The translations under genes were made by a program, and so were the position numbers. From Christensenellaceae bacterium Phil1 (GTDB lineage: Bacteria > Bacillota > Clostridia > Christensenellales > CAG-138): a stretch of DNA of 64,000 nt. The notes beneath the pieces were generated by a model. That model saw only the letters and a list, made by a program, of their open reading frames with translations. It did not search any database and was not told the origin of the DNA. Of this stretch, positions 15,388-29,945 are shown in pieces (position 1 is the stretch's first letter; each line of letters starts with the position of its first letter). Location of the stretch: contig MSGS01000009.1 of the NCBI GenBank assembly GCA_001940855.1, positions 64,441 through 128,440 of the forward strand. The letters run 5' to 3'.

Positions 15388-15463
15388 TCCTCCTTAGCTC
15401 AGTCGGTAGAGCATGCGGCTGTTAACCGCAGTGTCGTTGGTTCGAGTCCAACAGGGGGAGCCA
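15388..15463 (+). tRNA. tRNA-Asn (anticodon GTT), CCA encoded
   Basis: Hand-folded cloverleaf. The acceptor is TCCTCCT/AGGGGGA (one G-U pair), with D arm GCTC..GAGC, anticodon loop CTGTTAA and T arm GTTGG-TTCGAGT-CCAAC. Confidence 0.93.
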
Positions 15464-15492
15464 TCATTGGTTGATAAAAAGGAAACCACCTG

Positions 15493-15523
15493 AAAACACC
15501 ACAAGAAATTGTGGTGTTTTCTC
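15493..15523 (+). terminator. Rho-independent terminator after tRNA-Asn
   Basis: AAAACACCACAA-GAAA-TTGTGGTGTTTT followed by CTCGTTT. Confidence 0.75.
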
Positions 15524-15735
15524 GTTTGTTAGGCGTTTTATTACTACATATAGTGTTCTTCTGCGTCTTTTATGACCTAAATTGTTTAGGGAAACTTTTT
15601 CCGACCTTATAGACTTGTACCTGTGACAATTAAGTCATTTCTTCCATTATTACATAGGAAAACGATACAGACCGTATTTTCATCAATGAATTTACGGTCT
15701 TTTTCTTTTCCTCAAAAACTGTAAAGGAGTATATT

Positions 15736-16665
15736 GTGGAAGAAGAAAAGAGAAACACAGAGCCTACTGATCCGAAACGAGAAAAGGTCCGAGTCATTCC
15801 TCTATCCCAAATCGTTGATGCACCCGATCACCCTTTCCAAGTCAGAGACGATGATGAAATGATGTCTTTGATTGAAAGCGTAGCAACATTCGGAGTGATC
15901 TCACCTGTTATTGCAAGAAGAGTGGATGAGGATAAGTACGAACTAATATCCGGGCATCGACGAAAGTATGCTTGCGTGAAGCTGGGTAAAGATTCACTCC
16001 CTGCTATTGTCCGAGATATGACAAGGGAACAAGCCATTATATATATGGTAGATTCCAATCTACAAAGGGAACACATCCTACCTTCCGAAAGAGCTTGGGC
16101 TTATAGGATGAAGATGGATGCTATGAGAAAAACAGCTGGCAGACCGCCAAAGAATAATTTATCGCCAATGGCGACAAATATTCCAATTGATACTGCGGCT
16201 ATACTTGCTGAAGGTATGGGTGAGAGTCGAGATCAAGTATTTCGTTATATTCGTCTCACCTACCTTGTTCCTGAACTGCTTGAAGATGTGGACATTGGGA
16301 AACTCTCCTTTAGACCTGCCGTTGAATTATCTTACCTTTCCGAAGAAGAACAGAAGGATGTCTCTTATGTTATTGACGAGGAAGAAGCAACCGTGTCACT
16401 CGCACAGGCTTGTGAGCTGAAAAAGCAAAGCCAGGCAGGTATCCTTGATATGGAGCACATTGAAATGATACTCGGAGAGGACAAAAAGAACGAAAAGCAT
16501 AAGATCAAACTGCCCACTGAAAGAATTGTGAAGTATTTTGCGAAAGGGACGTCATCGCAAGAGATGGAAGAAACAATTATCAAGGCACTCGATCTTTACC
16601 GCCGGATGCAGGAAAAGGCAAGGCAACAGGCTCAGGATAGGAGCCGTAAAGGAGAAGCAAGATAG
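15736..16665 (+). CDS. ParB/Srx-family N-terminal domain protein (ParB-like, 309 aa); no ParA partner adjacent
   Basis: From the ORF track, with a GTG start after AAAGGAG. IPLSQIVDAPDHPFQVRDD and YELISGHRRKYAC (the GxRR box of ParB N-terminal domains) are present. The C-terminal half is helical. Confidence 0.8.
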   Translation: MEEEKRNTEPTDPKREKVRVIPLSQIVDAPDHPFQVRDDDEMMSLIESVATFGVISPVIARRVDEDKYELISGHRRKYACVKLGKDSLPAIVRDMTREQAIIYMVDSNLQREHILPSERAWAYRMKMDAMRKTAGRPPKNNLSPMATNIPIDTAAILAEGMGESRDQVFRYIRLTYLVPELLEDVDIGKLSFRPAVELSYLSEEEQKDVSYVIDEEEATVSLAQACELKKQSQAGILDMEHIEMILGEDKKNEKHKIKLPTERIVKYFAKGTSSQEMEETIIKALDLYRRMQEKARQQAQDRSRKGEAR

Positions 16666-16816
16666 GTATTCGATTACCAAGGGAGTAGTCTACCCTTTTA
16701 GGGGTTGGAGGTGGACTTCTTTTTTTCGGAAACTTGCTTTCGGCTTCCCCTTCCTTACCAACCAACCCCTCGTACATACCGTTATACTATCCGAAAGAGA
16801 GAATTATATGGAAAAT

Positions 16817-16844
16817 TTGAACTGCTGACGGATTTCAGTATAAT
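16817..16844 (+). promoter_or_regulatory. Putative promoter P1 (TTGAAC-16-TATAAT)
   Basis: TTGAAC lies at 16817-16822 and TATAAT at 16839-16844. The 13-mer AGTATAATATAGG (16837-16849) is repeated at 17265-17277. Confidence 0.5.
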
Positions 16845-16878
16845 ATAGGTGAAAAGAAAACAGATCGGAGGAACTGTT

Positions 16879-17247
16879 ATGGAAGTCAAAACACAAAGAA
16901 TAATCGGTATATCTCTTGTAGTGTTCTGTGCAATCGTCATTACCGTTTCGCTTTGCTTTGGAGATAGGCTGCCGAAGTCTCCACCGCCGCAGGGAATTAC
17001 CCACGGTTACTTGTTTGCCTTTGATGTGAACTGTGTAGATGAAAGCGGCGATCTTATTAAGACAGTGAAGATGGAAGGAAACGGAACATTGTGGAGCTTT
17101 GAACCGCCTGAGATTGAAGGCTATACCACCGAGAGAATGTCTATCACAAGAGACGATATCACCAACTGGAGTTATCCCGCATCCAACTATATAAGGAAAG
17201 CAGGAGGCTCAATCGTAGTTCAGTACAAGGCAGATACGCAAAATTGA
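16879..17247 (+). CDS. Membrane-anchored hypothetical protein (122 aa), possibly with a MucBP-like fold
   Basis: ATG 16879 lies 7 nt after GGAGG. The ORF track start at 16849 would precede the predicted transcription start. The N-terminal TM segment is IIGISLVVFCAIVITVSLCF. The LWSFEPPEIEGYTTE pattern is reminiscent of MucBP, but this is weak. Confidence 0.5.
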   Translation: MEVKTQRIIGISLVVFCAIVITVSLCFGDRLPKSPPPQGITHGYLFAFDVNCVDESGDLIKTVKMEGNGTLWSFEPPEIEGYTTERMSITRDDITNWSYPASNYIRKAGGSIVVQYKADTQN

Positions 17248-17272
17248 TTCTCTTTCCGGAATGTAGTATAAT
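17244..17272 (+). promoter_or_regulatory. Putative promoter P2 (TTGATT-17-TATAAT), a twin of P1
   Basis: TTGATT lies at 17244-17249 and TATAAT at 17267-17272. The extended region AGTATAATATAGG is the same as in P1. Confidence 0.5.
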
Positions 17273-17312
17273 ATAGGCGTAAAGAGAACAAGAACATAAG
17301 GAGGGCATCAAG

Positions 17313-17477
17313 ATGTTCGGATTTAAGAAGAAAAAGAGAATGGTCAAGCAGATCCCCGTCAGCGAATATGAGTACCACATTATGTTGGATGCTCTCTTGA
17401 AGCTGAGAGACAAGCTCATTGCCGAGGGACGGTACACAGACGGAGTGGACGAAACCATCTTGGCAGTTTGCAGATAA
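17313..17477 (+). CDS. Small hypothetical protein (54 aa, MFGFKKKKRMVKQIPVSEYEYHIMLDALLKLRDKLIAEGRY...)
   Basis: Not in the ORF track because it is under 60 aa. The ATG is preceded by AAGGAGG and the gene is followed by a strong terminator. Confidence 0.5.
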   Translation: MFGFKKKKRMVKQIPVSEYEYHIMLDALLKLRDKLIAEGRYTDGVDETILAVCR

Positions 17478-17496
17478 ATGAACTGAATACCATAAT

Positions 17497-17531
17497 GGAC
17501 ACCGAAACAAAAAGCGGTGTCCTTTTCTTTT
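17497..17531 (+). terminator. Rho-independent terminator
   Basis: GGACACCG-loop-CGGTGTCC followed by TTTTCTTTTT. Confidence 0.75.
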
Positions 17532-17535
17532 TCGG

Positions 17536-17667
17536 GCAGTCTTGTTGCAGTCTTGAAAAGGTCATTAACACAATATATTGATGTAGATAAACGAAAGAAA
17601 TACAAGATAAAGCGTTTGCAGACTTAAATCCCTCCCCATATTGCAGTCTTGCATTTTTGCAGTCTTG
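17536..17667 (+). promoter_or_regulatory. Five copies of (TT)GCAGTCTTG upstream of the pilin genes (candidate operator array)
   Basis: GCAGTCTTG occurs at 17536, TTGCAGTCTTG at 17545, TTGCAGACTTA at 17616, and TTGCAGTCTTG at 17641 and 17657. Confidence 0.6.
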
Positions 17668-17675
17668 CCTTACAT

Positions 17676-17727
17676 AGCCGCCGAAGCGACATTTTTTGGA
17701 ATGAAACTTCGACGGCTTTTTCTATTT
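17676..17727 (+). terminator. Terminator/attenuator-like hairpin in the leader of the pilin operon
   Basis: AGCCGCCGAAG pairs with CTTCGACGGCT in 10 of 11 positions, with a 20-nt loop, followed by TTTTCTATTTT. It lies about 30 nt upstream of the first pilin start. Confidence 0.45.
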
Positions 17728-17757
17728 TCGGGAGGTGGTTGCCTTTGGTTGTATTGA

Positions 17758-17970
17758 ATGACTCAGAGAAAGGAGGATAGCAACACGAAGCTCATCAAAA
17801 AAGAAAGCAAGTCGTTATTGAATGGCAGAAAGGCAGAAGGATATATCGACACGGCAATAAAACTGATTATTGGCGTAGTTGTAGGTTCGCTTCTTCTTGC
17901 CGGATTGTATGCCATTATCAACAACACCGTGTTACCCGGGCTTGCGGACAGGATTCAATCCATGTTCTAA
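17758..17970 (+). CDS. Flp-like short prepilin, divergent paralog 1 (70 aa)
   Basis: From the ORF track. The sequence is ...GRKA-EGYIDTAIKLIIGVVVGSLLLAGLYAII.... It shares the EGYID plus hydrophobic-helix motif with the next three genes. The SD for this start is weak, so the start is uncertain. Confidence 0.6.
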   Translation: MTQRKEDSNTKLIKKESKSLLNGRKAEGYIDTAIKLIIGVVVGSLLLAGLYAIINNTVLPGLADRIQSMF

Positions 17971-18067
17971 ACGGGATACACAAGATTCATCGTGTAATGG
18001 CGGTGCGATGAACTTGATCGGAAACGCCAAAAACAAATATTCTAATTATCGAAAGGAAAAAAACAAA

Positions 18068-18298
18068 ATGAAGAAGTTTATCAACAAGATTACCGGCAAG
18101 GCAAACGAGCTTGCCATCCGTGCAAAGACTGCCCTCACCGCAAAGGAAGGTGAAGGCTATATCGACACTGCCGTCAAGATCATCATCGGCGTGGTAGTCG
18201 GCGGCGTCATCCTCGCAGGACTTTACGCACTCTTTAAGAATGTCGTTCTTGTCAATCTGAACGACCAGATCGGCGATATGTTCAGCTACACCGCCTAA
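18068..18298 (+). CDS. Flp-like short prepilin, paralog 2 (76 aa)
   Basis: Start at MKKFINKITGKANELAIRAKTALTAKEG-EGYIDTAVKIIIGVVVGGVILAGLYALF. It has a basic leader, the motif, a single hydrophobic helix and a short tail. Confidence 0.75.
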   Translation: MKKFINKITGKANELAIRAKTALTAKEGEGYIDTAVKIIIGVVVGGVILAGLYALFKNVVLVNLNDQIGDMFSYTA

Positions 18299-18347
18299 TC
18301 AGTAACCAACAACACACATTTTTTGAATTAAGAAAGGAACTATCAGA

Positions 18348-18578
18348 ATGAAGAAATTTATCAACAAGATCAACAACAAGGCAAATGAACTTGCCATCCG
18401 TGCAAAGACCGCCCTCACCGCAAGGGAAGGCGAAGGCTATATCGACACTGCCGTCAAGATCATCATCGGCGTTGTGGTCGGTGGTGTTATCCTTGTCGGT
18501 CTGTATGCTCTCTTTAAGAATGTCGTTCTTGTCAACCTGAACGACCAGATCGGCGATATGTTCAGCTACACCGCCTAA
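18348..18578 (+). CDS. Flp-like short prepilin, paralog 3 (76 aa)
   Basis: From the ORF track. It is near-identical to paralog 2 at both protein and DNA level. Confidence 0.75.
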   Translation: MKKFINKINNKANELAIRAKTALTAREGEGYIDTAVKIIIGVVVGGVILVGLYALFKNVVLVNLNDQIGDMFSYTA

Positions 18579-18628
18579 TCAGTAACCAACAACACACATT
18601 TTTTTGAATTATGAAAGGAATTATCGAA

Positions 18629-18859
18629 ATGAAGAAGATTATGAACAAGATCACCGGCAAGGCAAACGAGCTTGCCATCCGTGCAAAGACTGCCCTCACC
18701 GCAAAGGAAGGCGAAGGCTATATCGACACTGCCGTCAAAATCATTATCGGCGTAGTAGTCGGCGGCGTTATCCTCGTCGGTTTGTATGCACTCTTTGATA
18801 ATGTTGTTCTCCCCAAGCTGAACACCGAGATCACGGATATGTTCAACTACTCTGCTTAA
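18629..18859 (+). CDS. Flp-like short prepilin, paralog 4 (76 aa)
   Basis: Start at MKKIMNKITGK. It has the same leader and motif as paralogs 2 and 3, with a divergent C-terminal 25 aa. Confidence 0.75.
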   Translation: MKKIMNKITGKANELAIRAKTALTAKEGEGYIDTAVKIIIGVVVGGVILVGLYALFDNVVLPKLNTEITDMFNYSA

Positions 18860-18873
18860 TCCGGTAAGAAAGC

Positions 18874-19473
18874 ATGATGATTACAACGCATAATTTCATC
18901 GTGCTTTCACTTATTGTATGTGCTACTCTCGGCGTAACCTATCTGCTTACCCGTGTCATGCAGGGGAAAGGGTACAAGGTTAATACCTTACTGAATATCC
19001 TTTTGATGCTTGCGATCTCTACGGTTCTCGTATTGGTCGGAAGCTCTTTTTCATGGATTCTCAAGGGGATTGCCTTTGCCTTGATCCTGCTTTATGCGTC
19101 TTGCGAGGACTATTCCAAAAGAGAGGCAGACGATTTCCTGTGGGTGATGATCCTCCTTCTTTGCATTTGTAATGCCAGCAGTTTAAGCCTTTGGTCAATG
19201 CTCGGCGGTGTGTTTGTCACATTTGTGCCGACATTCGCCATTGCCATTCTCGGTCGTGTTGGAGGAATCGGAGGTGCAGATATCAAGATAGCAGGTGCGT
19301 GTGGGCTGATGCTCGGCTTCATGGGTGGTTCCATCGGTTATGCGGTGGGACTGCTCAGCGCCGTGCTATTCAATATCATATACAATAAAGTGAAGCATCG
19401 TAAAAACAGTAAGTCATTCCCGATGCTGCCGTTCCTCTCGATTGGCTTTATGCTCGGGTACTTTATTTTCTAA
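18874..19473 (+). CDS. A24-family prepilin peptidase (TadV/CpaA-like)
   Basis: From the ORF track. It is a polytopic membrane protein with CEDYSKRE and GGIGGADIKIAGACGLMLG, the two-Asp motifs of A24 peptidases. Confidence 0.85.
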   Translation: MMITTHNFIVLSLIVCATLGVTYLLTRVMQGKGYKVNTLLNILLMLAISTVLVLVGSSFSWILKGIAFALILLYASCEDYSKREADDFLWVMILLLCICNASSLSLWSMLGGVFVTFVPTFAIAILGRVGGIGGADIKIAGACGLMLGFMGGSIGYAVGLLSAVLFNIIYNKVKHRKNSKSFPMLPFLSIGFMLGYFIF

Positions 19474-19493
19474 CCAATAGGAGGATTTGAACA

Positions 19494-20237
19494 TTGAAAA
19501 AAATGAAAATCAATAACAGAACGGTCATCGGTGTAATTTGTATCGTTCTGGCTTTGGTGGTGACATTCGGTGTGTCACCCCTTGTAAACAGACTCTCCGA
19601 CCTGAAAACCGATGTGGTCAGAGTCAAGAACCCCATTGAAAGAGGTCAGCTTATCACAGCCAACGACCTTGAAATCGCAAAGGTTGGTTCATATAACCTT
19701 CCCGAAGGAGTTATCAAGGACGGAACCACCGTTGTCGGCAAGTATGCCACTACCAACATGAGTAAGGGAGATTACCTTTTTGCTGAGAAGCTGACAGGGG
19801 AGAGTAACAGCCCTGAAGATATTCTTGCTTCACTTGATGGCTCAAAGGTGGTCATTTCCGTGTCTATCGGCTCATATGCCGAAGGCCTTTCCAATAAGCT
19901 CCAGAACGGGGACATCATCTCCATTATCATCTACAATAAGGATGAATACCGTTCATATATCCCGGCAGAGCTGAAATATGTTCGTGTTATTACCACTACA
20001 ACAGATGATGGCATTGATCAGGATGAAAACAGGGAAGGCGGTAAGGCAACTACTGTAACGCTTCTTGTAACACCCGAACAGGCAGAAATGCTTTCTGAGT
20101 ATCAGAGCGTTACTTCGATGCACTTCATCCTCGTTTACCGTGGAGACAAGGCAACAGCAGATAAGTTCATTAAGGCACAGGACGATTATCTCAAAGCCGC
20201 ACCTGCCAAGACAACGGAGGCGAGCGATAATGAGTAA
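19494..20237 (+). CDS. CpaB/RcpC-like Flp pilus assembly protein (SAF domain)
   Basis: From the ORF track, with a TTG start 9 nt after AGGAGG. It has an N-terminal TM segment. VVRVKNPIERGQLITANDLE is a SAF-like start. Confidence 0.75.
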   Translation: MKKMKINNRTVIGVICIVLALVVTFGVSPLVNRLSDLKTDVVRVKNPIERGQLITANDLEIAKVGSYNLPEGVIKDGTTVVGKYATTNMSKGDYLFAEKLTGESNSPEDILASLDGSKVVISVSIGSYAEGLSNKLQNGDIISIIIYNKDEYRSYIPAELKYVRVITTTTDDGIDQDENREGGKATTVTLLVTPEQAEMLSEYQSVTSMHFILVYRGDKATADKFIKAQDDYLKAAPAKTTEASDNE

Positions 20238-20982
20238 AGTAATAGCAGTATGGGGAACGCCGGGAAGCGGAAAGACCACTTTTGCGGCGAAGCTCGCTTC
20301 TTCTCTCAATATGGGAGGAAAGGGCAAGTCGATCCATTCCGCTATTGCTGTCTTTCCCGATTTTACGGCACCTGTTGTTCCGACAATCTTTCCAAACAAA
20401 AAGAGTGATGAGCTGTTCTCGCTTGGTTCGGTTCTGCAAAAGCCCGACCTGACAAAGAACCTCATCGTCTCTAATACCATCTTCATCAAGGACAGAACGA
20501 ACCTCGGTTTTCTCGGGTATACGGCAGGAGAGAACCGCTTTTCTTATGCCGAGTACACAAGGGACAAGGCAGATGCTTTTCTCGACTGTATTACGGGTGT
20601 GTCCGAATATGTGGTTGTAGATTGTTCCTCAAATCCCGAGGATAACATGCTCACAATGGCTACTCTTGAAAGGGCAGATATAGCGATCAGACTTCTGTCA
20701 CCTGATCTCAAAGGGCTGAGTTATCATCTGTCGCAGACACCTATCTATATCCGCTTCGGATATATGAAGGATGACTGTATTCAGGCAATCAATGTAACAA
20801 CACCCGAGTATCAGTATTCGGCGGCAGATATGAAGGGACATTTCGGAAAGGTCGAATATATCGTGCCTTACAGTCAAACATTGAAGGAACAGTATATGCA
20901 GGGAACACTCACCGAAACAACGAAGGATAAGAAGTACACTTCTGCCGTGGAAGCTATCCGTGAAAGGGTGGTGAAGGTATGA
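20230..20982 (+). CDS. TadZ/CpaE-like ParA/MinD-superfamily ATPase
   Basis: ATG 20230 overlaps the cpaB-like stop. MSKVIAVWGTPGSGKTTFAAKLA is a P-loop. The position between CpaB and TadA matches Tad loci. Confidence 0.7.
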   Translation: MSKVIAVWGTPGSGKTTFAAKLASSLNMGGKGKSIHSAIAVFPDFTAPVVPTIFPNKKSDELFSLGSVLQKPDLTKNLIVSNTIFIKDRTNLGFLGYTAGENRFSYAEYTRDKADAFLDCITGVSEYVVVDCSSNPEDNMLTMATLERADIAIRLLSPDLKGLSYHLSQTPIYIRFGYMKDDCIQAINVTTPEYQYSAADMKGHFGKVEYIVPYSQTLKEQYMQGTLTETTKDKKYTSAVEAIRERVVKV

Positions 20983-22292
20983 GAATCGAAATGTACGACC
21001 TTCTTTGTAAGGCACAGGAAACCATTGCAAGACAGTATCCGGCAATTCTTACGGATAAGTCCAAGCGTGGGGAAATGAAGAACTACCTTGCACAATATCT
21101 GTATAACACGGGATATACCGTAGACGGATATACCATGCAACAGACGGTGGACAGGCTATTTGAGGAAATGGCGGATTACTCAATCCTTACGAAGTATCTT
21201 GCAGATTCCAATATCGAGGAAATCAATATCAACGGTTGGGATGATGTGGCTTTGACCTATCTTGACGGGCGTATTGAGAAATCAAAGGAACACTTCTTCT
21301 CTCCCGGTCACGCAACGGATATTATAAAGAAGCTGCTTCAACATTCGGGAATGATCATTGACAACTCCATGCCGATGGCACAGGGACACTTGCCCGGCAA
21401 TACCCGTATTACCGTTCTGAAATCACCCATTGTTGATGATGAAAGAGGCATTGCGGCTTCTATCCGTATGCTTCATCCGCAGAGAGTGGACAGAGAGAAC
21501 CTTTTGAACACCGATTCCATTACAGACGAAATGCTGAGATTCTTGGAAATGTGTCTCCGATATGGCGTGTCCTTTGTTGTTGCAGGCAGAACAAGCTCGG
21601 GTAAGACAACCTTGCTCAATAGCTTGCTCGGCTCTGTTCCCGATAACAAGCGTATTTATACCATTGAATCGGGTGCAAGAGAGTTGGCACTTGTGAAAAG
21701 GGACACAAACGGAGCTGTGATAAACAATGTTGTTCATACACTTTCCCGTCCTTCCGAGAAAGACCAATCCAATGTGACACAAGAGGACTTGGTGATAGCG
21801 TCCTTGCGTTTTGATCCCGATGTGATATGCGTCGGAGAAATGCGAGATAGTGAAGCGGCATCGGCAATAGAGGCAAGCTCCACAGACCACACAGTCGTGA
21901 CTACCGTACACGGTGCTGGAGGAAAGTATGCTCACCAAAGAATAGCTTTTCTTGCCTTGAAGGGTATGAAAAGTAACGATATCCACATCGCCTTGCAACA
22001 GGCGGCACTTGCTTTTCCCGTGGTTGTGTTCGCACACAAGCTGGAGAACAATACCCGTAAGGTAATGGATATCTCGGAATGTATCGTAGAGGATAACGGC
22101 GAGCTTTCGTACAGAGTGCTTTATCGGTATAAGATCAAGAGCAACACTTATCGCAACGGTGAATTTTTCATTGACGGCGAGTTTGTGAAGGAGAATAATC
22201 TCTCGGATAATCTGAAAGAAAAACTGCTCCGTGGCGGTGTGCCGAATCCGTTGCTTGAACAATTCTTAGGGAAGGAGATGATGACGGCATGA
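20979..22292 (+). CDS. TadA/CpaF-type secretion ATPase (T2SS/T4P/T4SS ATPase family)
   Basis: From the ORF track. Walker A is AGRTSSGKTTLLNSL, Walker B is DPDVICVGEMRD, and the His box is VVTTVHG. There is a 4-nt start/stop overlap with both neighbouring genes. Confidence 0.9.
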   Translation: MRIEMYDLLCKAQETIARQYPAILTDKSKRGEMKNYLAQYLYNTGYTVDGYTMQQTVDRLFEEMADYSILTKYLADSNIEEININGWDDVALTYLDGRIEKSKEHFFSPGHATDIIKKLLQHSGMIIDNSMPMAQGHLPGNTRITVLKSPIVDDERGIAASIRMLHPQRVDRENLLNTDSITDEMLRFLEMCLRYGVSFVVAGRTSSGKTTLLNSLLGSVPDNKRIYTIESGARELALVKRDTNGAVINNVVHTLSRPSEKDQSNVTQEDLVIASLRFDPDVICVGEMRDSEAASAIEASSTDHTVVTTVHGAGGKYAHQRIAFLALKGMKSNDIHIALQQAALAFPVVVFAHKLENNTRKVMDISECIVEDNGELSYRVLYRYKIKSNTYRNGEFFIDGEFVKENNLSDNLKEKLLRGGVPNPLLEQFLGKEMMTA

Positions 22293-23215: not shown

Positions 23216-23229
23216 GGAGGGAAAAGAGC

Positions 23230-24108
23230 ATGATTATAGTACAGTTATTTATCGGAATCATATTCGCCCTCGGTGCCGGAATGATTCTGTGTGACATTTT
23301 CAAGATACCAACCTTGAAGGTCAGCCGAGCAACACACAACCTCGGCAAGAAGGGGGACAAGAAGGTCAGCCCCGTAAAACTTTTCCTCGACGGATTTGCA
23401 GAGGAATTTGCACAGAAGATCAAGCTGAACGAATGGAAGAAGAAAGAACTGGAGAAGGATCTGCTTTCCGCAGGACTTGGGGATGTAACGCCCGAGCAGT
23501 TCACAGCAAGAGCCATGACAAAAGCGTTTGCTGTGGGTATCTTTGCCATTCCCGCATTTTTTGTTTTCAAGGTTCTCGGTATTCTTTTCATCGGACTTGC
23601 GTTTTTCGTTTACTTCATGGAAACAAGGAGCATTACAAGCAAGATCAAGAAGAAAAGAGCCAAGATCGAAGCCGAGCTTCCGAGATTTGTGGGAACGGTA
23701 AATAATAAGCTAACCCACACAAGAGATGTGATCGAGATTCTGACCGCATACAAGGAAACGGCAGGCGAAGAGTTCAAAGAAGAACTGACCATTACCGTTG
23801 CGGAAATGAACATCGGTGCCAATAAGACCGAAGCTCTCACCCACCTTGAAGAAAGAGTTGGATCATCACTCTTGAGTGAAGTAACACTAAAGCTCAAAGC
23901 GGTGATTGAGGGTAACTACTCAGAGGCAAGCTGGACGATGCTTGCATCTACCTTCGCACAGCTTCAAAAGGACAACCTGAAAAAGCAAGCGAATACCATT
24001 CCACGAAAGTGCAGAAAGAACTCGATTGCGTTGCTTATCTGCTTTATCCTTATCTATGTGGTCGTTCTCGGTCAGGTGCTTATAAGCTCCCTCGGCGGCA
24101 TTTTCTAA
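23230..24108 (+). CDS. TadC-like platform protein (T2SS F-domain family)
   Basis: From the ORF track. It is a second polytopic protein with a cytoplasmic helical domain. AAGGAGGG lies upstream. Confidence 0.75.
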   Translation: MIIVQLFIGIIFALGAGMILCDIFKIPTLKVSRATHNLGKKGDKKVSPVKLFLDGFAEEFAQKIKLNEWKKKELEKDLLSAGLGDVTPEQFTARAMTKAFAVGIFAIPAFFVFKVLGILFIGLAFFVYFMETRSITSKIKKKRAKIEAELPRFVGTVNNKLTHTRDVIEILTAYKETAGEEFKEELTITVAEMNIGANKTEALTHLEERVGSSLLSEVTLKLKAVIEGNYSEASWTMLASTFAQLQKDNLKKQANTIPRKCRKNSIALLICFILIYVVVLGQVLISSLGGIF

Positions 24109-24120
24109 GGAGGGATGCGT

Positions 24121-24531
24121 ATGAGAAAAGTATTATGCAACAAGCGTGGAGAAGGGTATATTGATATTGCGGTGGCGGTTCTCGTCATCGTTTTTCTTTT
24201 GATCTTCTCAGTCAGCATCTTCTCAAAGATCGCCGTCAAGCAGGACATTGACTATATGTGCCGTGAGCTTGTGGAAACCGCAACCACCACAGGCAGGATC
24301 GGTCCTGAGTTCGACGCACGGTATGAGGAATTGTGTGATGAGATCGGCTTCCGTCCCACACTCAGCTATTCGGCAACCTACTTCAGTGCATCCGCAAAGA
24401 AGGTTCAGCTCGGCGATGTGATTACCGTCAAGCTGACATACCATACAAGTCTGTTTGGCTTCGGCGGTACGGTATTCCCATTCGATGTGAGTGTTATGGA
24501 ATCGGGGCTGTCGAGAGTTTATTGGAAGTAA
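24121..24531 (+). CDS. TadE-like pseudopilin / minor pilin (DUF4320-like)
   Basis: MRKVLCNKRG-EGYIDIAVAVLVIVFLLIF carries the same G-EGYID motif as the pilins. ATG 24121 lies 6 nt after AAGGAGGG. The ORF track start is 24115. Confidence 0.65.
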   Translation: MRKVLCNKRGEGYIDIAVAVLVIVFLLIFSVSIFSKIAVKQDIDYMCRELVETATTTGRIGPEFDARYEELCDEIGFRPTLSYSATYFSASAKKVQLGDVITVKLTYHTSLFGFGGTVFPFDVSVMESGLSRVYWK

Positions 24532-24540
24532 GGTGAGAGC

Positions 24541-24996
24541 GTGAAAAAGAATAGAGTCAAAGCTGTTCTTACGAATAAGGACGGCTTTTCATATATCCTC
24601 GTTTGCGTTATCATTCTTGTTTCCATGATGGTCATTTCCGTCTTGATGCAGTATGCCCATGTCTATCACACAGCAAGAGTGCATGAGGATGATATGCAAC
24701 TGCGGCTGGACAGCTATGTGACAAAGGAAGCCATTGAGAATTACGATGCTTTCAAACAGGGCGAACCGTACTGGAAATATATCAATGAGATTGATCTGAT
24801 CGGCGGTGCGAGAGGCGTTATCAGCGGAACGCCCGGAAGAAAAACAGGATTGACCGTAACACCTATCAAGGGAAAAAGCGTCGGTGTGTGTGTCAGTTAC
24901 ACATTGACGGTTCCCTTTGAACTATGGGGAAGAAAGGTTGCGGATATTGAGATCCCCATAGAGATTATTTCAAAACTGACAGAAAGGAACGGATAA
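24541..24996 (+). CDS. Second pseudopilin-like protein (TadF-like?)
   Basis: From the ORF track, with a GTG start. It has a short basic leader, KDG-FSYILVCVIILVSMMVISVL, then a globular part. Confidence 0.5.
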   Translation: MKKNRVKAVLTNKDGFSYILVCVIILVSMMVISVLMQYAHVYHTARVHEDDMQLRLDSYVTKEAIENYDAFKQGEPYWKYINEIDLIGGARGVISGTPGRKTGLTVTPIKGKSVGVCVSYTLTVPFELWGRKVADIEIPIEIISKLTERNG

Positions 24997-25335
24997 ATGA
25001 GTAAAAAGAACCTTATCACCACGATTGTGTGTATTGCGGTTGCAGTGCTTATGATCGTGGTAATCGTTGTTTCTGTTATTAAGGGCAGGGAAAAGAACCC
25101 CGAATTGCCTCCCGATACCACAATAACAGAGACAGAAAACACAACAGAACCTGAAGATACGGATATTCCGATCATCCCCATTCCACCGGACACGGATGAG
25201 GACACAGGCAAACAGGGTGAGGTTTATATTGATGTGATAAAGGAAAACGAAAAGCACACAAGACCTACAGAGCCAACGATTGAGGGTGAGCCGTATGTCG
25301 GGGATGATGTAAAGGAGGACGGAAATGCGGAGTAA
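24997..25335 (+). CDS. Small membrane-anchored acidic Pro/Thr/Glu-rich protein
   Basis: From the ORF track. The TM segment is LITTIVCIAVAVLMIVVIVVSVI, followed by PPDTTITETENTTEPEDTD.... It overlaps the next gene by 11 nt. Confidence 0.5.
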   Translation: MSKKNLITTIVCIAVAVLMIVVIVVSVIKGREKNPELPPDTTITETENTTEPEDTDIPIIPIPPDTDEDTGKQGEVYIDVIKENEKHTRPTEPTIEGEPYVGDDVKEDGNAE

Positions 25336-28300
25336 GATTAAGATCATTTCGCTGTTATTGGTTGTCGTAACGCTTGTGTCAATGCTGGCTTTGCCTGCAT
25401 CGGCAGAGTATTCCTATCCGATGGCAATTTCAATCTATTACAAGAATGAAGCAGGTCAGCAAGTAGCTCCCACATTATCGGCATCAGTTAATGCGTCAAG
25501 CTCCACGAAACCTTCTTGGAGTTCACCGACAGTATCCGGATATGTTTTGAAAAATGATGGAGATGCGGTTGTCACTTATGGTATGCTAAAGCTTAGCTTT
25601 CCTGCATCACATTATGTAAGAAACGGTTCGGGTACCTATACTGTATACTACACAGATCAAGGAACCGTGAATGTCAATTATATCTATGGTTCCAGTATGA
25701 GAACTGCGGCGGCACAAAAACAGTTAATGGGGAAAATAGGAAGCTCATATTATATTTATTCTCCGACTGTAACCGGCTACACACCGACATCCACAAGTAT
25801 CTCCGGCACGTATAATTCAAAGTCTACCACAAAAAATGTGTACTATTATGAAAAAAGCTATACGATTTCATTTAACGCAAACGGTGGTAGCGGTGCACCT
25901 CCTGCACAAACAAAAATGCACTTCACAGACTTTACTTTCCCATCTACGATTCCCACAAGAACAGGTTACTCATTTCTTGGCTGGGCAAATCTGTCCAACG
26001 CAACAAAGGCAGATTATTCCCCAGGTCAAAAGTACTCGGTAAACTGTTCTTCAACCATGTACGCTGTATGGCAAGCAAACACCTATACGGTATCTTTTAA
26101 TGCAAACGGCGGTAGTGGTGCACCAAGCAGTCAGACCAAGACCTATGGTAAGAATCTGACACTTTCAAGCACAAAACCGACACGAAGCGGATATACCTTT
26201 GCAGGGTGGTCAACTTCATCAACGGGTTCTGTTTCGTATCAGCCCGGTGGCACTTACTCGTCCAATTCAAGTGCAACACTTTATGCCGTATGGACGAAGA
26301 ATGCCGCAACTTACACGGTTTCGTATAATGCTAATGGCGGTAGCGGAGCACCTTCTTCGCAAACCAAAACGGAGAATGTAACACTGAAGCTTTCGACTAC
26401 GAAGCCTACCCGAAGCGGATATACCTTCCTTGGTTGGAATACAAGCAGTACGGCAACTTATGCGACCTACTCTGCCGGTGGTAATTACACTTCAAACAGC
26501 AGTGTAACCTTGTATGCGGTATGGCAGAAGAATCCTTCAACCTATACCGTTTCGTATAACGCTAACGGTGGTAGTGGTGCTCCGAGCAGTCAGACAAAGA
26601 CAGAGGATGTGGTACTGACACTATCAAGTACAACACCGTATCGAAGCGGATATACCTTTCAGGGATGGGGTACAAGCAGTTCATCCTCTTATGTGTCCTA
26701 TTCTCCCGGTGATAGGTATTATTCAAACAGTAGTGTGACACTTTATGCCGTATGGAGCAAAGACACACAGTATTACTATGTCTACTACAATGCCAATGGC
26801 GGTTCGGGTGCACCTTCCTATCAGACAAAAACCGAGAATGTGGCTTTGACTCTTTCGTCTACTAAGCCTACCCGAAGTGGATATACCTTCCTTGGTTGGT
26901 CAACGAGTTCGACTGCTTCCTATGCATCATACTCTGCGGGCAGTAAGTATACGACAAATGCGTCTGCTACACTTTATGCGGTATGGGAAAGGAACTTTGA
27001 AACTTATACGGTGTCCTACAACGCCAACGGCGGTAGCGGTGCTCCGAGCAGTCAAACAAAAGTGGAAGGCACGAACCTGACACTTTCAAGTACCGTGCCG
27101 ACAAGAAGCAAATACAGCTTTGTCGGTTGGGGTACTTCATCCACTTCGACATCTCCTTCGTATTATCCCGGAAGCACCTATTCGACAGACTCGGGAATCA
27201 CTCTCTATGCCATCTGGAGCAGAGTGTACGATTCCTACACCGTATCGTATAACGCCAACGGCGGTAGTAACGCACCTGCGTCACAGACAAAGATTGAGGG
27301 AACAACCTTAACTTTGTCGAGTCAGATCCCCGGCAGACTTGGGTATACCTTCCTCGGTTGGAGTACAAGCAGTACGGCAACCTCTCCCACCTATTATGTG
27401 GGCGGTAGCTATACAGCAAACAGCGGTGCAACACTCTATGCCGTGTGGTCAAGAGATGTTTATACCATTTCGTATAATGCAAACGGTGGTACGGGCGCTC
27501 CCACAAGCCAGAGCAAGTATTACGATCAGGCAATCAGTATTACAACGGCAACTCCTGCAAGGGACAGCTATAAGTTCCTCGGTTGGGCAGAAACGGCTTC
27601 CGCTACTATACCAACCTACTACGCAGGGGACACCTATGATGCCAACAAATCCACAACGCTTTATGCGGTATGGCAAGAGGTTAACTATGATTTCTCGGTC
27701 AGCAACCTAACTGCGGCACCGAGCGAGGTTTCACAGTATGATACTGTTTCAGTGGCATTCCGTATTGACAGTTGGGACAGATATAACCCTTATACGAATA
27801 TCCCCGTTGCAGTGCTGATGAACGGAAAAACCGTTTACTCTACTACTGTGAACATTGCGGCATACGGCGTGAAGAACATCAGCTTCAACCTCAATGTGGG
27901 TGCATCCGAGGGAACACAGCGGCTTGAAGCAAGAGTGAACTGGGCAGACCACAATAATGAAACAAGAACAGGCAACAATACCGTATCAACTACCTTTGAG
28001 GTTATCAAGGTAATTGAAACATCGGTAGATGCCGCAACCACAAACGGTGAGTATGTGGAAGGTCAGGAGGTTATCACGAGCTTTTATGTGAGAAACGATA
28101 ACAACCGAGATATTCTTCCCACAGACAATCTGACCTTCGACTTCAAGGTGTATACTGTCGGAAACGGCGGTAATGAGGTTGCAGTTGTCAATCAGACAAA
28201 GACAGGTATTGTTATCCCTGCCAACGGAACGAACCTTGTGTACTTCAAGTGGAAAGTCCCCGAAGGAAGTGCCGGAACACCCTATTGGTGCAGAGGCAGT

Positions 28301-28981
28301 ATTACACCGAGCAGAGGTGAGGCGAATACAAGCAATAATGCCACAGAGTTTGCCATCGTCTCGGCTCCCAAGTATGTTTCACAGACCGAGAACACAAGAT
28401 ATGAGGACAAGGCTCCTGCAAGCTACAATGCAAGCGTATCCGCACCTACCGACAAAGCCGGAAGTGCCACATGGAATGAGTGGACTTATGAAAACGGTGC
28501 GTTTGTTTTGAAAACCTACGGTATTACCGTGTCAAGCGATAATCCCGTGATTACACCGAGTTCGGGTTGTACGACCGCAGAGAAGTACGGCACATCTTGG
28601 AAAATGAAATCGGGTTACGGTATTGCATTGTCTTGGAATCCTACCATCCGCAGTTATTCGGGCTATTCTATGCCCACAAGTGATGCCTATACGGGTGTTC
28701 AGACAGCCTATGCAACATTCCCCGAGTTCTCATACAATGTGGCTTACGGCAAGTACAGAACACTTGAATATGCAGGTGGCAAGTATCAGTTTGAAGTCAA
28801 TACCGATGCAGACAAGAACGAGAGAGTCCACTTTATCCCCGTATATGTCAAGGACGGAAGCTATACCGTTTCCGTGACAGCGGGTGGTATTTGGACACCT
28901 GCCGGACTGGTTACGGCAACGAGAAGTGCGAATACGGTTGTTATTAACGGTACGATCTATTCGGACTGGTATCAGGGATGA
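25325..28981 (+). CDS. Large secreted repeat protein (1218 aa): signal peptide, 8 Listeria-Bacteroides (Flg_new-type) repeats, two CARDB-like domains and a C-terminal domain; no LPXTG or TM anchor
   Basis: From the ORF track. The signal peptide is LLLVVVTLVSMLALPASA. The repeat core is YTVSYNANGGSGAPSSQTK...LSSTKPTRSGYTFLGW...TLYAVW, present 8 times. The CARDB-like endings are ...ETRTGNNTVSTTFEV and ...EANTSNNATEFAI. AAGGAGG lies 7 nt upstream. Confidence 0.85.
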   Translation: MRSKIKIISLLLVVVTLVSMLALPASAEYSYPMAISIYYKNEAGQQVAPTLSASVNASSSTKPSWSSPTVSGYVLKNDGDAVVTYGMLKLSFPASHYVRNGSGTYTVYYTDQGTVNVNYIYGSSMRTAAAQKQLMGKIGSSYYIYSPTVTGYTPTSTSISGTYNSKSTTKNVYYYEKSYTISFNANGGSGAPPAQTKMHFTDFTFPSTIPTRTGYSFLGWANLSNATKADYSPGQKYSVNCSSTMYAVWQANTYTVSFNANGGSGAPSSQTKTYGKNLTLSSTKPTRSGYTFAGWSTSSTGSVSYQPGGTYSSNSSATLYAVWTKNAATYTVSYNANGGSGAPSSQTKTENVTLKLSTTKPTRSGYTFLGWNTSSTATYATYSAGGNYTSNSSVTLYAVWQKNPSTYTVSYNANGGSGAPSSQTKTEDVVLTLSSTTPYRSGYTFQGWGTSSSSSYVSYSPGDRYYSNSSVTLYAVWSKDTQYYYVYYNANGGSGAPSYQTKTENVALTLSSTKPTRSGYTFLGWSTSSTASYASYSAGSKYTTNASATLYAVWERNFETYTVSYNANGGSGAPSSQTKVEGTNLTLSSTVPTRSKYSFVGWGTSSTSTSPSYYPGSTYSTDSGITLYAIWSRVYDSYTVSYNANGGSNAPASQTKIEGTTLTLSSQIPGRLGYTFLGWSTSSTATSPTYYVGGSYTANSGATLYAVWSRDVYTISYNANGGTGAPTSQSKYYDQAISITTATPARDSYKFLGWAETASATIPTYYAGDTYDANKSTTLYAVWQEVNYDFSVSNLTAAPSEVSQYDTVSVAFRIDSWDRYNPYTNIPVAVLMNGKTVYSTTVNIAAYGVKNISFNLNVGASEGTQRLEARVNWADHNNETRTGNNTVSTTFEVIKVIETSVDAATTNGEYVEGQEVITSFYVRNDNNRDILPTDNLTFDFKVYTVGNGGNEVAVVNQTKTGIVIPANGTNLVYFKWKVPEGSAGTPYWCRGSITPSRGEANTSNNATEFAIVSAPKYVSQTENTRYEDKAPASYNASVSAPTDKAGSATWNEWTYENGAFVLKTYGITVSSDNPVITPSSGCTTAEKYGTSWKMKSGYGIALSWNPTIRSYSGYSMPTSDAYTGVQTAYATFPEFSYNVAYGKYRTLEYAGGKYQFEVNTDADKNERVHFIPVYVKDGSYTVSVTAGGIWTPAGLVTATRSANTVVINGTIYSDWYQG
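25859..27680 (+). repeat. Eight tandem ~228-nt coding repeats inside the adhesin-like gene
   Basis: The AATGC.AA.GG.GGTAG.GG.GC.CC blocks (NANGGSGAP) and TATGC.GTATGG blocks (YAVW) recur periodically. Confidence 0.8.
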
Positions 28982-28988
28982 GGTGCCT

Positions 28989-29300
28989 ATGAGAGATTAC
29001 GACGAATACGATGAGTATGAGAACGAACCAGAAGAACAGAAGGAAGTCATTGAAGGGTACACCGTTCAGGCTTCCTTATGGATTAACGGAAAAAGGCTGA
29101 TTTACGCAAAGGATGAAACGGGGGAAAAGGATATGCCGTATATGAAGGTCATTCAAGTTCCAGATCCTTTATTCGGTCACTACGAAAACGGCATTATCTC
29201 TGACAGCTATACCGAGATCATGAAGCAGTTTGCCGATGATATTAAGGCTGAGGCAATGAACAGCATATTAAAAGTGAAATATTCTTCGAATGTGAAATAA
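28989..29300 (+). CDS. Hypothetical protein (103 aa) with an acidic N-terminus (MRDYDEYDEYENEPEEQKE...)
   Basis: ATG 28989 follows GAGGTG. It is the last gene of the island operon. Its last codons overlap the first two GTGAAAT repeats. Confidence 0.5.
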   Translation: MRDYDEYDEYENEPEEQKEVIEGYTVQASLWINGKRLIYAKDETGEKDMPYMKVIQVPDPLFGHYENGIISDSYTEIMKQFADDIKAEAMNSILKVKYSSNVK

Positions 29301-29444
29301 TGCCCTACCGGGCATTGTGAAATTTGATGTTTCCCATCAAGTGAAATGAAATAAAACCCCACGCGCCGCAGCGCATTTCACATGGCGAAGCCATATTTCA
29401 CATGCTTCAGCATATTTCACAAATCCGCAAGGATTTATTTCACA
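29274..29444. repeat. 4+4 inverted array of the heptamer GTGAAAT / ATTTCAC, with short variable hairpins in the spacers
   Basis: GTGAAAT occurs at 29274, 29292, 29317 and 29341. ATTTCAC occurs at 29375, 29395, 29414 and 29437. Spacing is 18-25 bp. TGGCGA lies at 29383-29388. Confidence 0.85.
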
Positions 29445-29445
29445 G

Positions 29446-29472
29446 AAAAAGCAGTCCAAAGGACTGCTTTTT
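29446..29472. terminator. Bidirectional terminator between the island operon and the tRNA operon
   Basis: AAAAAGCAGTCC-AAA-GGACTGCTTTTT is a perfect 12-bp stem with A and T runs on both sides. Confidence 0.8.
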
Positions 29473-29473: not shown

Positions 29474-29547
29474 TGGAGCGGGTAAAGGGACTCGAACCCT
29501 CTATCTCAGCTTGGAAGGCTAATGTGTTACCATTACACTATACCCGC
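29474..29547 (-). tRNA. tRNA-Gly (anticodon TCC)
   Basis: The reverse complement is GCGGGTATAGTGTAATGGTAACACATTAGCCTTCCAAGCTGAGATAGAGGGTTCGAGTCCCTTTACCCGCTCCA. The anticodon loop is CTTCCAA. Confidence 0.9.
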
Positions 29548-29562
29548 ATGATATTCTGTTTT

Positions 29563-29648
<86 letters not shown>

Positions 29649-29671
29649 AATTTGCGCCGCAAATGCAAAAA

Positions 29672-29747
29672 TGGTGACCCGTCGGAGATTCGAACTCCGG
29701 ACACCTTGATTAAAAGTCAAGTGCTCTACCGACTGAGCTAACGGGTC
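29672..29747 (-). tRNA. tRNA-Lys (anticodon TTT)
   Basis: The reverse complement is GACCCGTTAGCTCAGTCGGTAGAGCACTTGACTTTTAATCAAGGTGTCCGGAGTTCGAATCTCCGACGGGTCACCA. Confidence 0.92.
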
Positions 29748-29752
29748 ATACT

Positions 29753-29828: not shown

Positions 29829-29860
29829 ATCCTGCGCAAAAAGCGCCTTGGGGAAGTAAA

Positions 29861-29938: not shown

Positions 29939-29945
29939 ATATACT

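Follow-up and report, generated by a model that had tools for sequence, protein, structure and literature searches.

An intact Tad-like pilus operon in a probable remnant of a tRNA-integrated mobile element from gut Clostridia

We analysed a stretch of 64,000 nucleotides of contig MSGS01000009.1 from Christensenellaceae bacterium Phil1 (here called the window), in which an island of 13.8 kb at 15464-29254 encodes a ParB-family protein, a Tad-like pilus operon and a large secreted adhesin. The island is probably what is left, on the tRNA side, of an integrative element. This element was most likely conjugative and belongs to a family that is common in gut Clostridia; in structure, the island is very probably a truncated element with an intact Tad-like module. 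An earlier, sequence-only reading of this DNA had seen a self-contained adhesion island reaching to position 29472, with an inheritance logic built on ParB and a terminal repeat array; its observations were partly confirmed and its interpretation was partly supported.

Junctions and truncation of the island

Comparison with related genomes that lack the island defined its junctions as 15463|15464 and 29254|29255, so that it does not extend to 29472. On the left side, related genomes share the DNA of the window up to position 15463, the last base of a tRNA-Asn (GTT) gene predicted by ARAGORN at 15388..15463 on the + strand, and then diverge. These relatives are 92-96% identical in nucleotide sequence around maf; beyond the tRNA, chromosomal genes of other kinds follow in most of them. 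In three other species (L002, L003 and L077; names of this type denote the loci or contigs that we retrieved) a tRNA-Asn gene lies ~260-560 bp upstream of a homologous ParB gene, and ParB-pilus elements also occupy tRNA-Cys in L005 and L007 and tRNA-Leu in L043. As homologous elements sit at tRNA genes in relatives, we regard the ParB end of the island as a genuine tRNA attachment junction, placed exactly at the 3' end of tRNA-Asn, and the horizontal acquisition at a tRNA gene put forward by the sequence-only reading holds. The same tRNA-Asn next to maf is followed by a ParA-ParB element that encodes a SpaA-type adhesin of 1550 aa in L114 and by a serine-recombinase element in L112. Duplicated tRNA fragments, as after serial insertions, were seen in both of these contigs.

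At the right end lies an acidic open reading frame (ORF) of 103 aa (28989..29300, + strand), which alignment with eight proteins of family c16 showed to be chimeric. Its residues 1-89 are the N-terminal half of this family of ~200-235-aa proteins, which follows the adhesin in relatives, and residues 90-103 (MNSILKVKYSSNVK) are encoded by chromosomal DNA, the c16 homology ending at codon 89, at 29254|29255. From 29255 on, the DNA is shared with the island-less contigs L096 and L098-L102, which are 97-99% identical to the right flank; to the left of this point they carry an operon of 23S_rRNA_IVP, DUF2087 and ADP-ribosylglycohydrolase genes of which the window has no copy. The island thus connects two chromosomal loci that lie apart in other strains. 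Because the c16 homology breaks exactly at the junction with island-less chromosomal DNA, we read the island as a truncated element and not as a self-contained one.

Truncation inside a gene also accounts for the missing integrase, relaxase and attachment (att) repeat, all of which the sequence-only reading had correctly reported as lacking. A second copy of the tRNA-Asn end was not found at the right side, and none of the island ORFs contains a recombinase, integrase, relaxase or VirB4/type IV coupling protein (T4CP) domain in Pfam and NCBIfam searches, oriT not being searched for; among the hallmarks of an intact integrative and conjugative element, only the tRNA insertion site fits. It is very unlikely that the island is still mobile, for instance as a mobilisable unit that uses an integrase and transfer machinery in trans. 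The tRNA site is used in related genomes by elements bearing ParA/ParB or a recombinase, and a small integrase-bearing element is found next to guaA at a distance of 8 kb, but the right junction falls inside a truncated gene and not at an att site.

The events leading to this arrangement can be outlined as follows. The element would have inserted at the 3' end of tRNA-Asn, and its distal part would later have been lost through a rearrangement that may have been a deletion or an inversion. The break would have cut the c16 gene after codon 89 and joined the remnant to chromosomal DNA at a distance of 20 bp from two Gut-1 RNA copies. By analogy with relatives, the lost part may have encoded an ArdC-N polyvalent protein, type IV secretion system (T4SS) genes, a relaxase and a recombinase, while the ParB-family protein, two small genes, the intact Tad-type (type IVc-like) pilus operon and the secreted modular adhesin would be what remains. 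The exact ATPase sequence of the pilus operon was found on 5 contigs only, compared with hundreds for ClpB of the same 90%-identity cluster. A scan of IMG/VR viral contigs with the ATPase returned no relative, and a phage origin was therefore dropped. Proteins in the 90%-identity clusters of Maf and ClpB of the window carry source names that point to an uncultured Eubacteriales/Christensenellaceae-like bacterium.

Relatives and mobile-element context

A search of GTDB species representatives with the ATPase yielded 242 relatives, almost all from metagenome-assembled genomes (MAGs) of Clostridia and the best 77% identical. We retrieved 80 loci for tblastn and clustering, and counted the 49 loci of at least 14 kb as long. 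Wherever these 80 loci extend far enough, the same order recurs, namely (ParB), pilins, A24 peptidase, CpaB-like protein, P-loop protein, ATPase, TadB, TadC, DUF4320 protein, 151-aa protein and a large secreted protein. At least one marker from a set comprising ParA/ParB, orphan methylases, LPD28, YodL/DUF3846, SpoVG and a giant ArdC-N protein is present in 38 of the 49 long loci, and several of the remaining ones encode a VirB4-like protein or a recombinase. The conserved neighbours are ParA, C5 and D12 DNA methylases, LPD28/DUF1281, YodL/DUF3846 and SpoVG; further neighbours include ArdA (L024), a MobA/VirD2 relaxase, DUF3991-Toprim and UvrD (L029), and a serine recombinase. The N-terminus of the giant neighbour protein matches SNF2/helicase proteins of Clostridium plasmids, and PF08401, which we take to be ArdC-N, is present in some of its homologues. 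A protein search with the N-terminus of family c24 returned contig-end fragments only, with no long contexts; a few of the fragments carry PF08401.

Annotated plasmids place the module next to transfer genes. In pTPHSE1 (Terrisporobacter) it stands directly before genes for a VirD4-like T4CP, a pLS20_p028-family protein and a MobP2 relaxase, in the Oscillospiraceae plasmid CP141730.1 it lies between ParA-ParB and TrbL-family/DUF87/M23 genes, and in C. difficile pCd5_2 it precedes a VirD4-like gene. The DUF87 protein of CP141730.1, a candidate VirB4-type ATPase, is matched by proteins of L010 and L018. When the flanking families were compared with two annotated plasmids by tblastn, VirB4-like proteins alone matched, and Pfam and NCBIfam searches of the flanking families c12, c16, c24, c28, c39, c40, c47, c48 and others gave no match. 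A VirB2/VirB6-like nature of c39 and c47, which we had considered, found no support in these searches. CP141730.1 (L090), NZ_CP154620.1 (L091) and NZ_CP037841.1 (L116) are typed as non-mobilizable by MOB-suite/PLSDB; given their annotated transfer genes, the mobility of these plasmids may be under-called.

Two further observations were made on the retrieved loci. L003, L023 and L058 are binned in MAGs of Sphaerochaetaceae, Alistipes and Alphaproteobacteria, most simply as mis-binned mobile DNA, though cross-phylum transfer may also be considered. In L092 (2826-9342 of a contig of 481 kb), three large serine recombinases in a row stand ahead of the ParB-pilus module, together with a PemK toxin, DUF6551 and a TIR (ThsB-like) protein; this set may represent a neighbouring or composite element with defence genes.

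Several observations weigh against the reading of the island as part of a conjugative element. In this remnant, which can no longer be transferred, every pilus gene is intact and translational coupling is kept, pointing to a function that does not depend on conjugation. No genome of the same species was found to hold the element in full. In the closest clade (L092, L094 and L095, with ParB 62-68% identical) the module has no adjacent tRNA gene, and the DNA compared for these three loci contains no T4SS gene; linkage to a T4SS was seen only in relatives with an ATPase that is 70-72% identical (L010 and L018) and in plasmids with 31-42% identity. Mobile-element markers are absent from L075, L076 and L079. 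In the literature searched, no experiment ties any DUF6133 pilus to mating, adhesion or fibre formation. The island does have the low GC content that the sequence-only reading had stressed (0.453, compared with 0.511 and 0.528 in the flanks), and its GC at third codon positions (GC3) is 0.50 against 0.66 in the flanks, but this is not unique to it: composition alone proves little, since a native-looking peptide-ABC transport operon at 50-62 kb is just as low in GC (0.457).

The pilus operon

Between tRNA-Asn and a set of six tRNA genes, 18 ORFs are encoded on a single strand (+). The genes, tRNAs and repeats listed by the sequence-only reading are real, and so is the tight packing that it described: from pilin 4 onward genes overlap by 8, 4, 4 and 11 nt, and the remaining gaps are 0-20 nt. 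All 14 genes from the first pilin through the adhesin are intact. Profile searches recovered DUF6133, Peptidase_A24, RcpC/SAF, T2SSE, DUF4320, ParB_N/HTH_ParB and eight Flg_new stretches, whereas the CARDB domain that had also been proposed for the adhesin was not detected with Pfam at E <= 0.01.

The operon opens with four pilin genes, all on the + strand. Pilin 1 (17758..17970) is a 70-aa DUF6133 protein (PF19629, E 6.4e-20) that diverges from the other three, with 32-34 identical residues in global alignments of these 70-82 aa proteins. Pilins 2, 3 and 4 (18068-18298, 18348-18578 and 18611-18859; PF19629, E 5e-23 to 2e-25) are three tandem copies of one unit of ~280 nt (repeat family D2, 80-89% identity). 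The four proteins score 71-89 bits against Pfam DUF6133, for which the cut-off is 27, and DUF6133 is their only Pfam match, Flp_Fap not being matched. The Flp-type motif G|XXXXEY is absent; instead, 63 distinct sequences share the core (K/R)x(A/G)-E(G/T)Y(V/I)D(T/S)(G/A)VK followed by a hydrophobic helix. A comparison of a DUF6133 pilin with Serratia Flp, the single Flp sequence used, gave an hhalign probability of 0.2%, in agreement with the earlier claim that the pilins are not of the classical Flp type. They belong to a distinct family that is curated only as a domain of unknown function. Cleavage after A/G would produce a mature pilin starting with EGY(V/I)D, with Asp at position +5. Other type IV pilins carry Glu at this position, which Asp at +5 would echo. 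Differences in pilin copy number among same-species contigs proved to be 100-N scaffold gaps and not biology. A tblastn search of PLSDB with the pilin gave zero matches, and no paper on DUF6133 or DUF4320 was found in the literature searched.

The pilins are followed by an A24 prepilin peptidase of 199 aa (18874..19473, + strand), short and dedicated like TadV, with Peptidase_A24 (8.8e-9) as its sole Pfam domain and a weak FlaK match; Asp79 and Asp136, the latter in a GGAD motif, are its candidate catalytic residues. The next protein (19494..20237, + strand) is CpaB/RcpC-like, with RcpC (3e-12) and SAF (2.6e-7) domains and a TIGR03177 score of 71.7 bits, just above the cut-off of 71. In the position of TadZ/CpaE stands a P-loop NTPase (20230..20982, + strand) with the Walker A motif GTPGSGKTT, whose matches in Pfam and NCBIfam are at the level of the P-loop only. 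It has ~250 aa, compared with 370-434 aa for the canonical TadZ/CpaE proteins used, with which it aligns in the ATPase part only (hhalign probability 67%, E 5e-5). A profile search of the PDB gave MinD (8.6e-4), with ParA and Soj weaker, and a single-sequence AlphaFold2 model was unusable, with a predicted local distance difference test (pLDDT) score of 32. The earlier label of TadZ-like thus stands as far as a P-loop protein is concerned, its likeness to MinD, ParA and TadZ being weak.

The secretion ATPase (437 aa; 20979..22292, + strand; T2SSE 7.7e-29) is of the CpaF/TadA type. In phmmer searches of the PDB its best match was CpaF (1.2e-25, 93 bits), followed by archaeal GspE (1.6e-20, 76 bits) and, at lower ranks, FlaI (1.7e-18, 70 bits) and VirB11 (3.9e-12, 49 bits); apart from archaeal GspE, no PilB/GspE/ComGA chain was found at E < 1e-8. 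Its top NCBIfam matches were FlaI, TadA and VirB11, all under the equivalog cut-offs.

Two polytopic membrane proteins of ~300 aa (22289-23215 and 23230-24108, + strand) are TadB- and TadC-like and mutually paralogous (hhalign probability 92%), and correspond to two separate single-domain platform proteins of the T2SS-F family. The assignment made by the sequence-only reading gained profile-profile and fold evidence, though not a Pfam match: T2SSF was not detected in these two proteins or in 23 relatives, and 120 homologues have no Pfam family on record. Against canonical TadB/TadC from Rhizobium, Serratia and Thioclava, hhalign gave probabilities of 95.2% and 94.8% (E 2.6e-8 and 4.9e-8). An AlphaFold2 model of a platform protein reached a pLDDT of 70.6, and ~80 in the cytoplasmic domain; in a Foldseek search of the PDB, 10 of the top 11 matches were cytoplasmic domains of EpsF/PilC/OutF, with target-normalised TM-scores of 0.65-0.75, and the remaining one was a PilC chain of a pilus-machine model. 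A TadC-like profile recovered 1,372 clusters at 50% identity.

Downstream of the platform genes are two minor-pilin-like proteins, both on the + strand and both kept after TadC in most loci that are long enough. The first (24115-24531; DUF4320 1.4e-29, 103 bits against a Pfam cut-off of 25) has the N-terminus KRG-EGYID and a weak TadF match (E 0.005, below cut-off), and does not match TadE. The second, of 151 aa (24541-24996), has the N-terminus KDG-FSYIL and no profile match. They are followed by a 112-aa protein (24997..25335, + strand) that has a single membrane helix at its N-terminus and ends in an acidic tail rich in Pro, Thr and Glu; this protein lacks a profile match and has homologues in the closest loci (cluster c38, tblastn). 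Its gene overlaps by 11 nt that of the adhesin (25325..28981, + strand), a secreted protein of 1218 aa with a signal peptide and eight Flg_new stretches of ~77 aa (1.2e-107). As the sequence-only reading had stated, the adhesin has no wall anchor of the LPXTG type; it shows a NANGG repeat spacing and is translationally coupled to the operon. Its tblastn matches recur at the same position in distant loci, and its C-terminal domain is common to the terminal large protein of related loci, as read by eye against the c21 representative, with heads that vary among loci (Flg_new, MucBP and others). The same 1218-aa gene is present in L081, and the source collection labels both this gene and its homologues DUF8195/DUF8194. 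Secretin, TadD and TadG domains are absent from all island ORFs, in keeping with the earlier report of a missing secretin.

Altogether, these profile and model comparisons assign the machinery to the Tad branch and not to Com, T2SS or T4SS, as the sequence-only reading had proposed, in a monoderm Clostridial host. It is very improbable that the pilus is a DNA-uptake (competence) machine. Tad-like competence pili are reportedly found in Micrococcus luteus, and the machinery here is likewise of the Tad branch in a monoderm. However, no ComEA-, ComEC- or DprA-type domain is present in any island ORF, the 1218-aa adhesin is coupled to the operon, and the system travels with conjugation genes and not with competence genes. 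Among the literature on Tad, CpaF, CpaB and Flp, one study deals with natural transformation and the expression of com genes in M. luteus (PMC8467076, in excerpt).

In the assembly scheme that we propose, the A24 peptidase would cut the motif (K/R)x(A/G)|E(G/T)Y(V/I)D of the DUF6133 prepilins behind A/G, leaving an acidic residue at +5, and the CpaF-like ATPase together with the TadB/TadC-like platform would polymerise the pilins. The DUF4320 and 151-aa minor pilins may prime or cap the fibre, the CpaB-like and P-loop proteins may scaffold the machine, and the Flg_new adhesin would provide attachment.

ParB and the heptamer array

The ParB-family protein (309 aa; 15736..16665, + strand; ParB_N 1.9e-16, HTH_ParB 3.3e-5) scores 84 bits against TIGR00180, with a cut-off of 58, and its top PDB matches are Noc and Spo0J. 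Its N-terminal ParB/Noc-type domain carries a GHRR motif, which we take to be the CTP-binding box. A ParA partner is present neither in the island nor in the flanks within the window. By tblastn, ParB is placed upstream of the pilins in ~30 related loci; it is solitary in the closest clade (L002, L092, L094 and L095), whereas ParA (cluster c15) stands before it in 15 long loci that are more distant, as well as in plasmid CP141730.1. ParB, which had been listed among the unusual parts of this locus, is thus conserved in the parent family of mobile elements, and these comparisons assign it to the element backbone, as part of a maintenance or regulation module, and not to the pilus.

The sequence-only reading had also placed inside the island an array of eight heptamers, on which ParB was supposed to act. 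The array itself is real, with 8 copies of GTGAAAT/ATTTCAC in 170 bp (29274-29443) and 12 in the whole 64 kb, but it begins 20 bp past the island junction. It corresponds to two convergent copies of the Gut-1 RNA (Rfam RF01706), with heptamers at 29274-29347 on the + strand and at 29370-29445 on the - strand. The RF01706 consensus, a 77-nt model, itself consists of three hairpins separated by GUGAAAU, and each copy here comprises three GUGAAAU-hairpin units and a closing GUGAAAU, so that the two together make up the 8-copy array. The - strand copy (29370-29445) matches the model over its full length (1-77) with 71.9 bits (cut-off 50, E 1e-14), and the + strand copy scores 39.7 bits, below the Rfam cut-off. 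Island-less contigs carry DNA that is ~98% identical to the array. The ParB-pilins-adhesin order recurs in other Clostridia; the heptamer array was seen in none of L001-L095 besides the window. The array is therefore chromosomal and unrelated to the island, and belongs to an RNA motif that is already catalogued.

A self-contained adhesion island in which ParB acts on a terminal array of eight parS half-sites is thus extremely improbable. ATTTCAC does resemble TTTCAC, the core of the parS half-site, and the ParB protein combines its GHRR-bearing domain with a helix-turn-helix domain. Yet the array lies outside the island, is kept in contigs that have neither island nor ParB, and in its - strand copy is a full-length Gut-1 match above the curated cut-off. 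Moreover, no parS-like or Noc-site-like 16-mer palindrome was found in the 64 kb at <= 3 mismatches. A palindrome inside parB, GTAGATTCCAATCTAC, is a codon coincidence that is not conserved at synonymous sites.

Gut-1 is a non-coding RNA known from human gut metagenomes only, with no function assigned (Weinberg et al. 2010, PMC2864571). Beyond the published description, its genomic setting is visible here, just beyond a terminator-like hairpin that follows a six-tRNA operon. This hairpin (29446-29472, - strand), a G+C-rich inverted repeat of the chromosomal backbone flanked by A and T runs, can be read as a bidirectional terminator, and the operon (29474-30022, - strand; ARAGORN) encodes tRNAs for Gly, Leu, Lys, Gln, His and Arg and is shared with island-less contigs. 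In island-less strains the Gut-1 pair lies directly upstream of the start of the 23S_rRNA_IVP/DUF2087 operon.

Possible roles of the pilus

In intact relatives, the pilus would most likely bring donor and recipient together, like the IncI thin pilus. In this strain it could serve only adhesion or aggregation, or help co-resident elements. A mating role of the pilus family, drawn by analogy, is a tentative proposal. It is favoured by the fixed backbone position that the module holds next to transfer genes across families. The wider view is doubtful that machines with DUF6133 pilins are the long-missing mating pili of monoderm conjugation and a conserved core module of a large family of Clostridial conjugative plasmids and tRNA-integrating elements, joining donor and recipient by means of a modular adhesin, and that the window copy is a remnant domesticated for adhesion to other cells or to the host.

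It is also possible, though we would not call it probable, that pilus and adhesin are colonisation or adhesion cargo of mobile elements, serving attachment to mucus, food particles or cells without any role in DNA transfer, and that they were kept here as useful. The operon, fully intact from first pilin to adhesin in an element stripped of its transfer genes, favours this explanation; the heads of the adhesin vary, as niche adaptation would predict, and in some relatives the flanking-gene clusters contain no mobile-element marker families. Plasmid-borne tad loci are known in Cutibacterium acnes (PMC5696575, title and abstract). On the other side, cargo usually lacks such stable synteny: the module is fixed, on the same strand, between ParB/anti-restriction genes and ArdC-N/T4SS genes, and it holds this position in plasmids and MAG loci assigned to several Clostridial families (Oscillospiraceae, Lachnospiraceae and Peptostreptococcaceae among them, besides a Christensenella MAG), over ATPase identities from 77% to 31%.

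Comparison with known systems

The island resembles the Tad/Flp (type IVc) systems of Caulobacter (CpaA-F) and Aggregatibacter (tad) in its CpaF/TadA-type ATPase, its single-domain TadB/TadC paralogues, its CpaB/RcpC protein and short A24 peptidase, its pilins of 70-82 aa, the position of the minor pilins after the platform genes, and the compact layout as one operon. Tad/Flp pili also occur in monoderms, for example in Bifidobacterium breve. The island differs from them in its DUF6133 pilins, with (A/G)|E(G/T)Y(V/I)D in place of G|XXXXEY (one Flp compared), in platform proteins too divergent for Pfam T2SSF, in a protein at the TadZ position that has a classical Walker A motif and matches the ATPase part only, in ORFs that contain no secretin, TadD or TadG domain, and in a giant Sec-dependent adhesin coupled to the operon.

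PAPI-1 combines tRNA insertion with soj/parB-type genes. Like the thin pilus of the IncI plasmids R64 and TP114 and the PAPI-1 pilus, the island family has its type IV filament machine encoded within conjugative plasmids or tRNA-integrated elements. Those pili are of type IVb, come from diderms, and have a secretin and PilV-type tip adhesins, whereas the present one is of the Tad branch, from a monoderm and known from genes alone, and the window copy lacks transfer genes. According to reviews, R64/TP114 thin-pilus and PAPI-1-type pili aid mating or are required for it (PMC12857230 and, in excerpt, PMC9045228).

The plasmid-borne tad loci of C. acnes (Actinobacteria) share with the island a Gram-positive host and, judging from the title and abstract, a Flp/Tad locus on a plasmid (PMC5696575). 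The title speaks of Flp pili, compared with DUF6133 here, and the host belongs to another phylum; the ParB-pilin-adhesin-ArdC-N synteny is not known to be shared. A further cluster, from the TANB77 order, encodes a divergent Tad-like pilus (CpaB, TadZ/CpaE, TadA and TadB/C) of uncultured gut Clostridia that was recognised mainly by structure (PMC11680825). It differs in being conserved across and exclusive to that order, with no ParB or mobile-element context reported, and in having a fused TadC-TadB and seven pilin-like proteins of 143-621 aa (PMC11680825).

Other features of the island and its flanks

The non-coding left end of the island (15464..15735, + strand) contains a terminator-like hairpin at 15492-15521 and shows weak DNA similarity to the DNA upstream of ParB in L092, L094 and L095. 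ParB is followed by two small genes on the + strand. The first encodes a membrane-anchored protein of 122 aa as called by the source collection (16879..17247; the ORF itself runs from 16849), with a weak MucBP-like domain (E 0.0011, below the Pfam cut-off), and a gene of 120-122 aa is conserved after ParB in L002, L092 and L094. The second (17313..17477) encodes an uncharacterised protein of 54 aa, and a gene of 52-54 aa is kept in the closest relatives. A promoter-like segment of 57 nt (TTGnnn-N16/17-TATAAT; repeat family D11) is duplicated upstream of both, at 16806-16862 and 17234-17290.

A repeated operator-like 11-mer in front of the pilins, which the sequence-only reading had described, is present in three copies (TTGCAGTCTTG), and four copies exist only of the shorter GCAGTCTTG. 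These four exact copies form two pairs upstream of the first pilin gene (17536..17667, + strand), where they are a candidate operator, and occur nowhere else in the window; three of them extend to the 11-mer. The GCAGTCTTG repeats were found only in the same-species contigs L081, L082 and L084 and are absent from relatives. Both the GCAGTCTTG repeats and the duplicated 57-nt segment are real features that are lineage-specific. In the closest relative, L002, a 26-nt inverted repeat (92% complementary) surrounds a 222-bp segment at 2762-3035, just upstream of the pilin genes; it resembles an invertible promoter switch, of which the window has no equivalent.

Outside the island, the window contains at 50200-62300 a second block of low GC (0.457, GC3 0.44) that is unrelated to the island and encodes a peptide ABC transporter, M20 peptidases, an amidohydrolase, an EamA transporter and a LysR regulator. 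We had considered this region as the second half of the element and rejected it, as it is an operon of peptide ABC transporter and peptidase genes. Upstream of it, a T-box leader (RF00230, 119 bits) at 47254-47471 precedes an 878-aa ORF (47534-50170), presumably an aminoacyl-tRNA synthetase in view of its position downstream of the T-box. At 4552-7840, directly against the 3' end of guaA (7956-9488), lies a small integrated element with an AAA_25/DnaB_C-like gene, a helix-turn-helix regulator and a tyrosine integrase. In related genomes this site is taken by other elements (with Mob_Pre, with a serine recombinase and TnpW, or with NikA-like genes), and the 3' end of guaA thus looks like an insertion hotspot.

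Novelty and implications

Part of what is described here was already on record, since DUF6133 and DUF4320 are curated, the gene order is annotated on sequenced Clostridial plasmids, and Gut-1 is catalogued; the novelty suggested by the sequence-only reading is to this extent reduced. Both Pfam families are uncharacterised. In the literature searched we found no description of a pilus that derives from Tad, has a pilin family of its own and belongs to the backbone of conjugative elements of monoderms, and nothing specific on a conjugation-linked Tad pilus in Clostridia. According to reviews, pili are not encoded by Gram-positive conjugation systems, and this makes the association of pilus and conjugation at the level of the family of interest.

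The window itself holds an immobilised fragment, and most of the value lies in the relatives rather than in its own copy. The family exposes gaps in annotation, as its platform proteins have no Pfam family and its pilins and one minor pilin are domains of unknown function. If the pilus does help mating, it would bear on the spread of genes, including resistance genes, among strict gut anaerobes, and would offer a handle for blocking or engineering their transfer.

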